From NCBI GenBank assembly GCA_028534125.1, contig CM052837.1, forward strand, positions 30,380,001-30,444,000: a stretch of 64,000 bases of DNA, in the 5' to 3' direction. Source of the stretch: Lama glama (lineage: Eukaryota). The translations under genes were made by a program, and so were the position numbers. The notes below the pieces were generated by a model. The model had not been told where the DNA came from. It saw only the letters and a program-made list of their open reading frames with translations, and did not search any database. Position 1 is the stretch's first letter. Each line of letters begins with the position of its first letter. This document shows positions 47,161-61,038 of the stretch, piece by piece.

Positions 47161-48624
47161 TTCCAGGTGAAGTCGAACTATAAACATATCCATTAATCAA
47201 TTTCCCCTTTCAGATCCATATCAACCTTGCAAAACGGAGGTGGGTATAGAAACTTGGCCTCCCCAGCTCTGCACCCCGTCAGCAGCCTCTGAGCCATTAT
47301 GGCCGTTTCCCAGTTTTATTTGGCGATTAGCTGTGTATTTTAAGTCTCACCCTAGCAGGGTTAGCCAGGTTGCTCTCCCACTTCCTGAATTACTTTACAA
47401 AGTTTTGTTGGAACACAGACACGTGGATTCTTTTTCTCACCATCTGGCTGCTCTGGTGCAGTCACAAAAGAGACCTTCTGGCTCCACGATGCCTCAAATA
47501 TTTACTATCTGGTCCAGAACTTTTTGCTGACCTCTGCCCTACGGGGCATCCACATTTACTAGCTGATACCAGGGTGGACCCAAGACCCTAGACGCCCACA
47601 CAGTTGTGAAAGTACGCTTTCCAAAAAGGCTATTTTTCCTCTTTGTCAAAAGAGCTACACCACCAGAAAGTACAAGAAATGTTTGTACGATTTCGATCTA
47701 TGGGTTTTCACTAGAAAGGTCAACAGCCCTTCTGTTCCTAGAACAGAAACATTGATAGCTCATGACAAATGGCAGAAAGGTGACAACAGACTGTAAAATG
47801 CACCAGCATTCCCCAGCCAAACCCTTCCGAACAACCGAAAATAACTCCAACGCAAAGAAATGATTCTATCATGGGTCTCCGCCGTCAACTCCATCTTTCC
47901 CTCTTACAGCGAAGATTCAAAACTGTGTCATCACCCGCCTGATGCCACCCTTCTGTGGAATCCGATTTGTTCAAACACAATTTCTAAAGTAAGCTATATC
48001 TTCAGTGAAACAGCCCCCATATACAACCAGTAACAGAGCTGTTTTCACATCTTTTTCCCCAGTTTACCAAAAACAATGAACTCTATTCAATGTTTTAAAA
48101 GCAGGGATGTTTAGGTTGACAAGGGCACACGAGAATTTGTATTAAACAAAGGCTGTATTTGAAGAAAGGAACTTCGCGTAAACTGTCATTCCACAGCCTC
48201 TTAAGCTTTGGTCAAATAAAATGTCCATTTACAAGAAATTTGGGTTTTCACCTGCTTGTTAGTTCAGCAAACACCAAGCGCTTACGGTGATGAAAGACAC
48301 TTGTCTCAGGCTTTCCCACACATCACACGTCCCAGAACTAAGTCCAGGACCCAGTGGGCCCCTCATCTCTTTTAGAAACACAAGCACAGAAATTTTGAAT
48401 TTCACAACACACAATTACAGGCTGAGCTGGGGTTAGCTTGATCTTTGGTGCCACCTACAGATCAAACTGCGTTTCTCTTCACTGCAGCGCTAAGACACTG
48501 AGAAATCCCACGTGCATTTACAATGAAATTACTCAGGGGAAGGGGTGGGAGGTGGGTGGGGTGGCACTGGAGAACCCCACACCGTAACCTGTCTATGGGA
48601 GAACATAAAAATGGAGTGTCCCTC

Positions 48625-49171
48625 ATTCTACAGATGAGTTTGCATTTTTATTGTAAGACAACAGACGGAAGGAATCACACAAAAATGTATAAGGCGAATT
48701 ACTCTGATAAACCATCACCCAGGTTAAGAAATCGAAACTTTCTGGCTACCCCAGGCCCTCCACCTACCCCGCCATCACCTTCACCTTCTACAAATCAGTG
48801 TAGTTTCAGTTTTCCCATGTGGTCGGTCTAATGAGTTTCATAATTCCATCGGAGATGGATTAGTTTTAGAACTGGAATCCATTGTGAAGACGCTATCCCT
48901 ATTGGATAGAGCAGTGCTCAATGGACCCACACCTCGGAGCCGAGTCAACCTGCTTGGATGATTCTTGGAGGGAAGACAGCCACGTGGAGAGGGGTCTCCG
49001 TGGCACCTGCCCTCATGCCACGGGGACTGCAGCTGTCGCCTCTGCAGGCCTGTGAGGTTGGAGAAGGCATCTCCAGAGCTAGTGATGCAAGTCTGGCTTG
49101 ATGGCCTGACCGCAGAGGGCTGGGCAGGGGCACCTGGACATCTGGACAGCTGACCACCCTCTTGGGCAGAA
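48625..49171 (-). other. ZFP64: ZFP64 distal isoform 3' UTR (end approximate)
   Basis: Runs from the stop codon to just past the first downstream AATAAA. Confidence 0.65.
48647..48652 (-). terminator. Polyadenylation signal AATAAA
   Basis: tttatt on the plus strand, about 520 nt downstream of the stop codon. Confidence 0.65.
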
Positions 49172-49881
49172 CTAGAGGCACTGGCTGGGCTCCAGGGACG
49201 TCTCGAGCTGCCCGACGGAGACCAGGGTGCCCAGCTGCCCCGAGGCACTGCTTTCGGGTGGGAAGGTGACCAAATCCGAGTTCTTGCTCTCATTGTGGTC
49301 ACTGTGCTGCTTCTTGTGGCACCGCAGAGAGTCGTCCCTGACGAAGGAGGCGCCGCAGGTCTCGCAGCGGAAGGCCCTCTGGGTCACGATCTTGGCCACG
49401 TGCTGTGCGCTGCTCTCCCGGGGCCCTTCCCTGCCCGGCGGGGCCCGGTTCTCCGTTTTGGCCTCGTCCCTGTGCACCTTGTCGATGTGCTTGGCCAGGC
49501 TGCTGGGCCGCTTGGTGTCGAAGCTGCAGAAGTCGCACTTGAAGGGGCGGTCCTTGCAGTGGACCCGGCTGTGCACACGCAGGGCGGCCGCGCTGGAGCA
49601 GGAGTAGCTGCACTCGGGACACTTCTCGGGGTGGTCGGCCTGGTGCAGCCGGCTGTGCTCCAGGAGGTCGGCGCGGTCCCGGCCCTGGAAGGCGCAGTGC
49701 AGGCACTTGAAGGTGTGCTTGATGCGGATGTGCGACTTGAGGTTGGCCTTCATGGTGCAGCGGACGTCACAGAACTCGCACTTGAAAGGCTTCTCCCCCG
49801 AGTGCACGATCATGTGCCTTTTCAAGTCCGAGCTGATTTTGAACTTGGCGCTACAGAGCCAGCACTGGAAGGGGGTGTCCC
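49172..49881 (-). CDS. ZFP64: ZFP64 distal terminal coding exon, six C2H2 fingers, ending ...QLETSLEPSQCL*
   Basis: Lies within ORF 49172..49906. Acceptor ttgctag|GG at 49883-49882, TAG at 49174-49172. Near-identical to the remembered C-terminus of the human alternative isoform (...LEPSQDL). CpG-rich. Confidence 0.96.
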
Positions 49882-50029
49882 CTAGCAACGGAAGGTGTGT
49901 TTCCATTAGAGCGGGCAGGCCAAACAGAACTCCCCCAAAACATGCGTCAGAACACCTGGCTGCGGAGATGGTTGGGTCTTTGAACTCCCATCACCTGTCG
50001 CCTCCTAAGGCCACCACTTACCGTGTACA

Positions 50030-52883: not shown

Positions 52884-53135
52884 CTGTGTGGGATCGGAGG
52901 TGGACGGTGAGCTGGCTGGAATTGCGGCTGGCGTAGGGGCAGAGCTGGCATTTGTACGGCCGCTCGTCGGAGTGTATCCGCAGGTGCTTCTTGAGGCTGC
53001 TGCTGTCCACGGCAGCATAGTCACACAGGTGACACTTGTGGGGCTTCACACTGGTGTGGCACCGCATGTGCATGGTCAGGTTGTCCTTGCGACTGAAGCA
53101 CTTATCACAGAACTCACACTTGTGTGGTTTGTCCC
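52884..53135 (-). CDS. ZFP64: ZFP64 internal exon (252 nt, phase 1/1) encoding three C2H2 fingers, GDKPHKCEFC...QLTVHLRSHT(G)
   Basis: Lies within ORF 52816..53145. Acceptor tgtgtttgaag|GG, donor ACAG|gtaagt. Canonical C-x2-C-x12-H-x3-H fingers. Confidence 0.96.
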
Positions 53136-56082: not shown

Positions 56083-59074
56083 TAAAATGTAGTTTTTGAT
56101 TCAGTGGGTCTGGGTGGGGGACTGAGATTCTCTATTTCCAACAAGCTCCCAGTGGTGCTGATATGTCTGGTCTCCACCAGATTTCAGGTAAGCAAGGTTT
56201 AGTGTATTAAAACGCCACATACAGAACACTTTGATAGCAATTATACTTAAGTATGGTTTAATGTGAGTTTATTATATTTAAAAACATTGTTCTGGGAAAG
56301 GGCCATAAGCTTCACAAAATCACCAGGAGTCCACAGCAGAAAAAATGTCAAGAACGCCTTTATCTGATGTGTTCCAGACAAAGACAGCGCCACCCGCTGG
56401 GTCCTGGGGAGAAGACCACGGGGAGCAGAGCTGAGCCGGACTCTGCGGGACAGGGACAAGCAGCCTTCAGTGACCACTCAGACTGACACTGTAATCGCAG
56501 CCTAACCTACACCTCCTCCATCCTCTGAAAAAAGTCGTAAGCAGAGGATTGTGGGCACGTTCTACCCAATTTCCCAGGAAAAGTGTTTCCACGTTCAATT
56601 AGTTGTTTAATAGCAGAGGGGAAGAAAAAAAAAAGCCTCAACTCACTACACGATAGGTTAACCCAAGTGAAAAAAAAAGTGGGATAAAGACACAAACATT
56701 GTAAGTCAATTTTCTTTATGAGACTAAATACCAAAGAACCATCTTAATCGCAAAACATTTGAAATTCCACCATCATTCTTGATTAAAAACCTCAAACAAA
56801 ACACACCTCAAAATCAACCTCAGAAGCCTTGAAGAAAAAAAAAAGTCCTTCACATGATAAATGATCCCTACAAAGCCTAAGGACTTGAACCATAAATGGT
56901 GGTTAAAAAAACAAAAACAAAAACTAAGTATTCCATTAGAGTAACGAATAAGATATACAGATGGTTACTTTCACTGCTGTTTTTCAACTCCGACCAGAAG
57001 CACCAAGATCAGGGCTCTCCAGATATAGAATAAACAGGGATACAATAGTCCATCTGCGCGATCCAGAAGAACAGACTTGAACTCTCGGAATAAGACAGAA
57101 GGGGCCGGGGAGAACACACGAAATTCACCTGAAAACACTGTGCTCCTGTCAGCACTCTGTCCAGTTCCTGTGCGCCCCTCACTCACACATCCTTAACCCC
57201 AGTCTTCTCCCTCGAGATAACCACGTTCTCCAACTTGGCAGGTGGGGAAGAGGGTGTGCCGGTGATTAAAGTAAGTGCCCAGCGATATACGATGCTCTTC
57301 GATTCACTATCTTAATTTAGTACTTTTTAGCTAACCAGATGCGGAAGATACAGTATTTGTGTTTCTTTGCACTTTATTGGCTTGTGGGCTTTTCATTGGA
57401 ATATTGGCACTTTTATTTCTTAACTGACTGATTGCTTGTTCAAACCCTTTTCCATTGGGGGTCATTTGATTTGTAGGCATCCTTGAGTGTTCTGAAGATT
57501 AACTCTGCCCCATGTTGCAAATTTTTCTCGTGGGACACTTGTCTCAACTTCAGTGGTGTTTTATAAGTTAAAACTTTAGTCATATTTAATGTCTTCTTTG
57601 TGGTCTTTGTTAATTGTTTTTGCCTGTCTACTTATACTGTACGTTTGTCATCCGATATTTCCTAGTAAGGAATGGACTTTAACATTTAACTTATTTGGAA
57701 TTTGAATGTAAGGTGAGGGACTACTGGACTGTCACTTGTCCCGGCACCATGCAAACTTCACCCACTCCTCCTCCAACCAAGGCTGGGTAAGAGCCATTCA
57801 GAGTGGAAAACAGACCAAGGGATTTTAATTTAACAGTTTGAAAAACTCATGGATGTGACTTGACTGCAAATTCTATACAGCAACTAGTCTTTAAGAAACT
57901 ATCATTTGCTGTGTTTTGGTATAGTATTAAAGAAATACAATTATCTGAAAAGGCTATCAAAATACTCCTCCATTACATTATGTGAAACGCCAGATTTTCC
58001 TCCGATACTTCAACCAAAGCAACACAGGGCAGTGGACTGAATACAGGGACAGAGGCATGAGAATCCAGCCAACTATTAAACAAGACAGGTTTGCAAATGT
58101 GCACACAGTGTTACTGGTCATTTTGTTTTGGAAAATACTTACTTTCCATAGATGTGTTTATATAGAATGGCCTTAGTGCTATTTTAAAATCAATAAATAT
58201 TTTTAAATCAATAACTATTTTAAAGTTTTGGTTTTTAACTTCAAGTGCAATTAACCGTAGATAAAAAACTCTCTGGGGATCTTCAGTTTTGAAGCGTAAA
58301 GGATCTCAAAACAGTGGTTTGAGAACTACTGTACTCATTCGGCGGAGGTGAAGCTTCAGTGATCACTTACACATACCACCATCCCTGCCTCCCACTTACA
58401 GCGGGCCCACAGGTACCACTGGCCCTATGTATCAGTTCTTTTTCTCATTATAGAATCTTCTCTTCATAGCTGGGCACTTGCCACAGATTCAAGACTTCAA
58501 GCTCCTGGCCTTTTCCACAATGAGCACTGGCCATACGACTAAGTTCTGGCCCAATGGGCATCACCTAACTCAAGTGAGATAACATCTAGGCTGTGCTGTT
58601 AAAGAGGAAGCCATCTCAGACCATGCTAGTGAGAGCTACACCCTTGGGATGTCAAACCAACAAAATACGAGCCTGAGTCCCTGAAACCACGAGGCTGGCC
58701 ACATACTTAACTTGGACGTCACGGGACAGAAGTCCTTTGGTTTTCTGTCCTTTGGCTTTTACTCATTATTCTTCTTGTCACAAGGGATCCTACTTCTGGG
58801 TCATGCCCAGACGGGGAGATGCTGTGAGGCTCCCAGGTCCCACTCCTACTTTCTACCATTCAAGAGGTTCAAAGTACTAGCAAGAGCAGTTGCCTTGAAA
58901 CCTGGAACCAGAGAAGTAGCCTAAGTGTTCCTCTGCCAGAGGGGCAACGGGTCTGCCTACATTGCGTTCCTGACTCAGGGAACCCACCAAGGACAGAGCC
59001 TTGCTCTATGCTTTCTGTGTCCCCATCATGCTCTGTATTATCCTCAATAAAACATTATTAATCCAGCTGCTGCC

Positions 59075-60588: not shown

Positions 60589-60651
60589 CCGTGTGGATTC
60601 GTAGATGGCGGTCTAAATCTTTCATGCCGTGAACAGTTTTGAAATGGCAAC
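60589..60651 (-). CDS. ZFP64: ZFP64 internal exon (63 nt, phase 1/1): (G)CHFKTVHGMKDLDRHLRIHT(G), completing finger 1
   Basis: Acceptor ctcttctag|GT and donor ACGG|gtaggt. In frame with both flanking exons. Too short for the ORF track, so read by hand. Confidence 0.93.
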
Positions 60652-60888: not shown

Positions 60889-61038
60889 CTGGATAGCAAC
60901 AGTTGAACGTCCTCTCCCCAAGGGTGGCCGTTTGTTCTTTTGACTCTGAAGCAAGAGCAGTTACAGGGGCTTTCTGGGCGTCACCGCTGTCGGTGGAGGG
61001 ACAAGGTGGCTTTGGAACCTCGTTATCTAGTTCTGCAG
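60889..61038 (-). CDS. ZFP64: ZFP64 distal-cassette internal exon (150 nt, phase 1/1): (A)AELDNEVPKPPCPSTDSGDAQKAPVTALASESKEQTATLGERTFNCCYP(G)
   Basis: Acceptor tttcag|CT (AG at 61040-61039) and donor CCAG|gtaaag (GT at 60888-60887). Translation resembles the human ZFP64 alternative-isoform segment ending ATLGERTFNCCYPG. Confidence 0.9.

Follow-up and report, generated by a model that had tools for sequence, protein, structure and literature searches.

It is probable that the promoter and first exon of SALL4 were joined to exons 3-6 of ZFP64, likely by a single tandem duplication, giving rise to a predicted repressor, and that a decayed stretch of DNA behind the stop codon of a duplicated ZFP64 exon is the leftover of this process. 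Regarding the parts of this proposal, we hold it likely that a placental SALL4-ZFP64 chimera was made by one duplication, and the predicted repressor function of the chimera appears reasonably likely. The window analysed here is the whole stretch of 64,000 nucleotides (C22:30380001-30444000).

Two homologous ZFP64 last exons lie in tandem, on the same strand and in the same splice phase, and both are named ZFP64 by database matches. The distal exon (Z6') is found in the window, and the proximal one (Z6), located about 37 kb away and upstream in transcription, served as the same-genome reference for the comparison of tails:

49175..49881, minus strand: Z6', coding part of the distal ZFP64 last exon, six C2H2 fingers and a short tail
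49883-49882, minus strand: splice acceptor AG of Z6'
49172..49174, minus strand: TAG stop codon of Z6', in frame with a proximal CAG (exon codon 236, VP-Q-FS)
C22:30467711-30466428 (locus L002), outside the window: Z6, the proximal ZFP64 last exon with intact tail, 427 codons, ending in ADSIPD

Z6' is 62% identical to Z6 at the amino acid level, and its residues 130-235 show 59-92% identity to 53 placental proteins. Use of the last exon is exclusive among database proteins, with 53 of the distal type, at least 120 (among 202) of the proximal type and one mixed Logan sequence.

The DNA that follows the TAG of Z6' preserves, in decayed and non-coding form, a copy of the C-terminal tail of ZFP64. 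An initial annotation had proposed such a fossil, colinear with Z6, and the alignment of 49171-48850 with the Z6 tail at the DNA level bears this out, with a score of 337 against 214±18 for shuffled sequence (z 6.9, 0/300; 300 dinucleotide shuffles were used per segment). Aligned alone, 49110-48990 (z 4.6) and 48990-48880 (z 3.6) each exceed all of their 300 shuffles (0/300). The segment next to the stop, 49171-49100, gives no significant alignment when unanchored (z 1.2, 32/300 shuffles); anchored at the stop, the 47 nt of 49171-49125 are matched by 0/2000 shuffles and two longer cuts by 4/2000 each. No significant alignment with the Z6 tail was found in 48880-48400. The frameshift-aware protein-to-DNA alignment of the tail, which the annotation had recommended, scores 57 against 32.9±5.6, the best of 60 shuffles reaching 52. 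The remnant and the elements behind it are as follows:

49125..49171, minus strand: remnant of FSEGRVKIIVGHQVP, by anchored alignment only
49045..49098, minus strand: remnant of NQTFITSSGITCTDFEGL, 35/54 nt identical, after a net deletion of about 254 nt
49016..49042, minus strand: remnant of EGTAEVTVV, 18/27 nt identical
48944..48976, minus strand: remnant of TSQQELPKQTY, 21/33 nt identical, with RIIQAG here in another frame
48900..48941, minus strand: remnant of IIQGGAHPALLCPA, 24/42 nt identical, with an in-frame TGA
48647..48652, minus strand: first AATAAA after the stop, predicted poly(A) signal
48434..48481, minus strand: 48-nt block matching DNA about 950 nt past the Z6 stop, 75% identity over 48 nt (36.8 bits; best of 30 shuffles 26.8)

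All the peptides quoted in the annotation are present in minus-strand frames where it had placed them. One of them, RIIQAG, had nevertheless been taken for a tail fragment in the wrong register, as its DNA aligns to the proximal QQELPKQTY in another frame (SLQESSKQVD); its homology to SIIQG was rejected on the same ground. The homologue of IIQGGAHPALLCP in the remnant reads GSEVWVH*ALLYP. The four gap-free blocks are identical to Z6 at 98/156 nt (63%), and the frame is broken by stops and at least two frameshifts. Identity at codon positions 1 to 3 amounts to 33, 34 and 31 of 52, a test covering 52 codons only, in blocks picked from the alignment; being flat, it gives no sign of protein constraint. 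The remnant may be transcribed as a putative 3' UTR, in view of the first AATAAA at 48652; RNA runs contain about half of the words from 48500-49900, a count that does not distinguish which part of that stretch they come from. The 48-nt match at 48434..48481 may be convergent. A putative CTCF-like motif occurs in it and at the corresponding place behind Z6, C22:30465480. Scanning metagenomes for copies of the UTR from mammals returned 63 loci whose best segments have 25-52% identity, with no orthologue among them.

The tail was cut by an in-frame change, CAG>TAG, which removed 191 codons. The DNA around the TAG has a gapless identity to Z6 of 36/51 nt, and a 1-nt frameshift was rejected as the source of the stop, since two alignment gaps cancel out and leave the stop in frame. 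Before the NQTF block, 327 nt in the proximal exon face 73 nt in the distal one, which corresponds to the net deletion of about 254 nt. The annotation had attributed the loss to frameshift or stop together with deletion; the deletion and the later frameshifts stand, but the stop itself is the substitution. All the distal proteins (53/53) end at the same point. Homology of the distal DNA reaches the last codons of Z6 and, weakly, a block about 950 nt beyond its stop, in agreement with the annotation's claim that the whole last exon was duplicated before the tail was lost. Our results therefore support that exon 6 was copied whole and later truncated, whereas the available passages of PMC8373072 describe a copy of only 'part of' exon 6.

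The main context of the remnant lies beyond the region that the annotation had considered, as the distal exons make up one unit with a promoter and a first exon (S1') that derive from SALL4:

C22:30446160-30446055 (L007:2160-2055), minus strand, about 2 kb outside the window: coding part of S1', MSRRKQANPQH...
60889..61038, minus strand: Z3', diverged copy of ZFP64 exon 3, receiving the splice from S1'
60589..60651, minus strand: Z4', copy of ZFP64 exon 4
52884..53135, minus strand: Z5', copy of ZFP64 exon 5, three fingers, 87% nucleotide identity to proximal exon 5
56235..56524, minus strand: alternative last exon, seen only in two retrocopies (S1'-Z3'-Z4'-exon), 77-85% identity to L084 and L081

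Mapping of database isoforms on 160 kb places S1', a 36-aa first exon with a phase-1 donor inside a CpG island, between proximal exon 6 and Z3'. The five exons (S1' and Z3'-Z6') sum to 426 codons here, the same length as mouse RefSeq NP_001357875.1 (isoform 3, 426 aa). S1' is spliced to the full Z3'-Z6' set in annotated proteins of 416-430 aa, and the whole spliced form occurs in the Logan/ENA protein P0186 (47 contigs of at most 2041 nt, hence too short for genomic DNA). Seventeen of the 53 distal proteins, from primates, bats, elephant, rodents and lagomorphs, start with MSRRKQ[AT]KPQH. In an alignment of 16 rows of S1', 9 of the first 11 columns are invariant and the remainder diverges; motif position 8, an x position, is N in place of K in this genome. 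A search with the S1' N-terminus gave 34 matches of 413 candidates, all named ones placental. The UniRef name of a bovid ZFP64 cluster (P0024) is 'Spalt like transcription factor 4', which hints at an encounter of automatic annotation with the SALL4-like exon.

The origin of S1' can be traced by the N-terminal motif pattern, which has 4 sites in the genome and 0 in the control. Compared with the site at C22:30252630, S1' gives z 13.7 for the promoter, 9.9 for the exon after the motif and 7.4 for the intron start; the corresponding values for the other two sites, presumably SALL paralogues, are 4.7/1.6/0.9 and 0.4/2.4/-0.3. The gene at C22:30252630 shares the strand of S1' and is located downstream of the distal stop, at a distance of 176 kb; a PDB search with its exon 2 retrieves chains of SALL4 (E 3e-139). 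When promoter, first exon and start of the intron are taken jointly, S1' matches SALL4 with z=21, and a second promoter block, displaced by repeats, does so with E 4e-12; at L007:2373-2841, several copies of one interspersed repeat family cut the SALL4-derived promoter into two blocks. A PDB search with the 36-aa S1' peptide, in a set without chains shorter than 20 aa, returned one chance match. The order SALL4-ZFP64 has also been described in the pig (PMC2374978).

These observations allow us to propose a model in which a block running from ZFP64 intron 2 to SALL4 intron 1 would have undergone a head-to-tail duplication in the placental stem lineage. The resulting junction would have set the N-terminal NuRD motif of SALL4 ahead of the ZFP64 fingers, CAG>TAG would then have cut the tail of 191 codons before placentals radiated, and the tail DNA thus released would have decayed by deletion and frameshift. 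A duplication with these borders copies exon 6 whole, which explains the tail fossil. Read along the minus strand, the exons come in the order Z1, Z2, Z3-Z6, S1', Z3'-Z6' and then SALL4 exon 1 (S1) and S2-S4, and the splice joints of S1' and Z3' are both phase 1 and thus compatible. Intron 5 and the intron end align between the copies, which indicates a copy made at the DNA level.

Two separate events, namely a tandem duplication of ZFP64 exons 3-6 as alternative exons and an independent landing of a copy of the SALL4 5' end upstream of them, would also yield this arrangement. The spacers are unequal in size (20 vs 176 kb), and neither junction nor spacer remnant was found: the S1'-Z3' intron has no match to ZFP64 intron 2 above shuffles, leaving the breakpoint unmapped, and a scan of 81 windows found that the spacers have only repeats in common away from their ends, which align. 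A seemingly colinear match between DNA 8 kb past the Z6 stop and 42624-42150 was rejected, since it belongs to an interspersed repeat of which at least 39 further copies exist, and a second flagged spacer window as AT-rich noise. We nonetheless regard two events as unlikely, because the observed order, strand and intronic borders are exactly those that one event predicts, because S1' carries a promoter and an intron and is therefore not a retrocopy, and because the divergences are of one size (promoter 67-69%, introns 62-71%, remnant 63%).

As to the age of the duplication, the distal exon was found in 53 proteins among 113 candidates, all placental and including elephant, and the long tail is present in placentals, marsupials, monotremes, sauropsids, amphibians, coelacanth and shark (at least 120 among 202). 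In a tree of 26 of 157 cut rows, chosen for taxon spread (LG+G4), placental distal and proximal copies group together (100/99), apart from marsupials and monotremes, a result to be read with the long distal branch (0.49) and conversion between copies in mind. Branch lengths of 0.23 on the placental stem before the split and 0.49 on the distal branch after it reflect fast change of the finger exon, followed by little within placentals. From these data we infer that the duplication would have occurred on the placental stem. An older origin, in the therian or mammalian ancestor, would require that the placental copies were homogenised by conversion and that the distal unit was lost or left unannotated elsewhere. 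In its favour, the event is dated to 'Mammalia' in the passages available of PMC8373072, conversion is observed in ruminants and could make the duplication look younger, and three tail positions of the remnant show the non-placental state or come closer to it (S, L, and a TGA one step from an S codon). Against it, these three positions also agree with a copy that arose at some point along the placental stem; AU tests reject trees that place the duplication earlier (p-AU 0.0005 and 0.003); and no marsupial or monotreme appears among the named distal-exon matches (53) or S1' matches (34), although their single long form was found. We thus consider an older duplication quite improbable.

Lineage-specific residues common to both copies were found in 3/9 pairs examined, all three ruminant, and this looks like recent gene conversion altering the fingers of an activator. 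The shared residues of the pairs P0024/P0139, P0032/P0093 and P0035/P0073 span two fingers, and the proximal exon of muskox carries the distal helix SSAAALRV. Synonymous differences between the copies number 1/46 in the first 50 codons and 15/94 later (p 0.02), a comparison confounded by a GC3 of about 0.9. The stretch 49952-49730 and the intron end plus exon start of L002 are unusually alike, a possible conversion tract. P0080, the mixed sequence mentioned above and one of the 120 with the long tail, is a single Logan sequence from one contig that joins distal-type fingers to the full proximal tail, and is likely an assembly chimera.

This sequence, together with a second open frame of 181 codons (49383-48841, minus strand) that runs across the end of Z6' and the remnant and holds SQTCITSSGDAFSNLTGL, could be taken to indicate that the remnant is still in use, either through read-through or another frame giving a longer distal protein, or as a selected UTR element. 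We find this hardly credible, given the internal stops and at least two frameshifts, the even identity over codon positions and the termination of 53/53 proteins at the TAG; P0080, moreover, is one sequence from one contig, has the proximal tail and comes from a lineage with converted identical stretches, and the 181-codon frame is likely a by-product of GC-rich third positions.

Other products of the distal unit are evident from two broken processed retrocopies, L084 (C4:23471669 on) and L081 (C37:21729793 on), in which S1'-Z3'-Z4' is spliced to the alternative last exon, ending at 56524/56406-56235, with no Z5'-Z6'. The two processed retrocopies suggest that the S1' promoter was active in the germline. 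A 645-aa isoform, with exon 5 spliced into Z3', would carry neither effector. Among the vesper-bat forms P0174, P0175 and P0195, P0195 ends a few residues before other distal proteins, and P0174 carries the extra Pfam family PF03221. Mouse isoforms 2 and 3 are hardly detectable in Purkinje cells, according to the part of PMC12178792 available.

With respect to function, the N-terminal RRKQxxP binds the NuRD subunit RBBP4 in SALL4, FOG-1 and BCL11A (PMC11602157, as far as available), and this motif is conserved at the extreme N-terminus of S1'-type proteins. The region lost, in turn, is cited in the accessible part of PMC12178792 as the transactivation and Notch-binding region of canonical ZFP64, so that the isoforms would differ by an effector region, as the annotation had anticipated. 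The prediction for the chimera is thus a gain of a repression motif together with loss of the activation tail, a loss that may have been either selected or tolerated. The 426-aa product would recruit NuRD via RBBP4, under SALL4-like control, to sites partly shared with canonical ZFP64. Between canonical and distal fingers, 4/9 compared keep positions -1, 2, 3 and 6 and 5/9 have a recognition position altered, so targets may differ and no more than a partial overlap is to be expected.

The chances seem to us evenly balanced that 'ZFP64 isoform 3/e' covers an unrecognised placental gene, for which one duplication combined the promoter and NuRD motif of SALL4 with the fingers of ZFP64. This gene would have exchanged the activation tail for a repression motif and would either counterbalance canonical ZFP64 or serve targets of its own in the early embryo, the germline or the placenta, with the UTR fossil as the footprint of the exchange. 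If so, a single locus name would stand for two proteins, one an activator known as the MLL-promoter factor in leukaemia, the other a NuRD recruiter that is specific to placentals and has a promoter of SALL4 type, and 'ZFP64' knockdowns, antibodies and expression counts would mix both products. Such mixing could account for reports of Zfp64 as high in pluripotent cells and responsive to Oct4 RNAi, with the isoform unstated (PMC4756831), and of a ZFP64-HDAC1 co-immunoprecipitation with the isoform unnamed (PMC10527061), in the passages available of both papers. The locus would also provide a transcription factor whose change of sign, via exon capture from a neighbour, can be dated. The remnant alone would be a footnote, correcting 'part of exon 6' to all of exon 6 followed by truncation.

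Among the matches listed for full-text literature queries, no title or abstract start concerns the remnant or a SALL4-ZFP64 chimera, and none of those listed for the NuRD motif and ZFP64 brings the two together; subscription motif papers may name the isoform. The matching passages of PMC4595712 refer to Zfp640, and nothing on the chimera is found in those of PMC10012579, which describes Zfp64 imprinting in rat, PMC12953826 and PMC12155391. A published study of terminal domain gain names ZFP64 and SALL4 0 times in its main text.

The exon duplication and the truncated isoform are already published, as event 236 of Martinez Gomez et al. 2021 (PMC8373072), a C-terminal substitution derived from a tandem exon duplication in ZFP64; the distal exon is treated there as an alternative C-terminus, and the UTR remnant and the SALL4-derived exon are absent from the passages available. 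Like canonical ZFP64 isoform A/1 (cited in the accessible parts of PMC12178792 and PMC7465943), the distal unit encodes a homologous finger array, but it has lost the C-terminal tail that the canonical form conserves from placentals to shark. The combination of an N-terminal RRKQxxP with C2H2 fingers is shared with FOG-1, SALL1, SALL4, BCL11A, ZNF296 and ZNF827 (PMC11602157); in contrast to these proteins, ZFP64 is absent from the motif list of that paper, which has one unrelated mention of it in the parts available, and NuRD binding of the isoform is predicted. As in the published cases of terminal domain gain, exons of neighbouring genes would have been joined after duplication, whereas here the two parent genes have stayed intact and the chimera goes by the name of ZFP64, within which it is nested. 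It would be a further instance of a known route to new genes.
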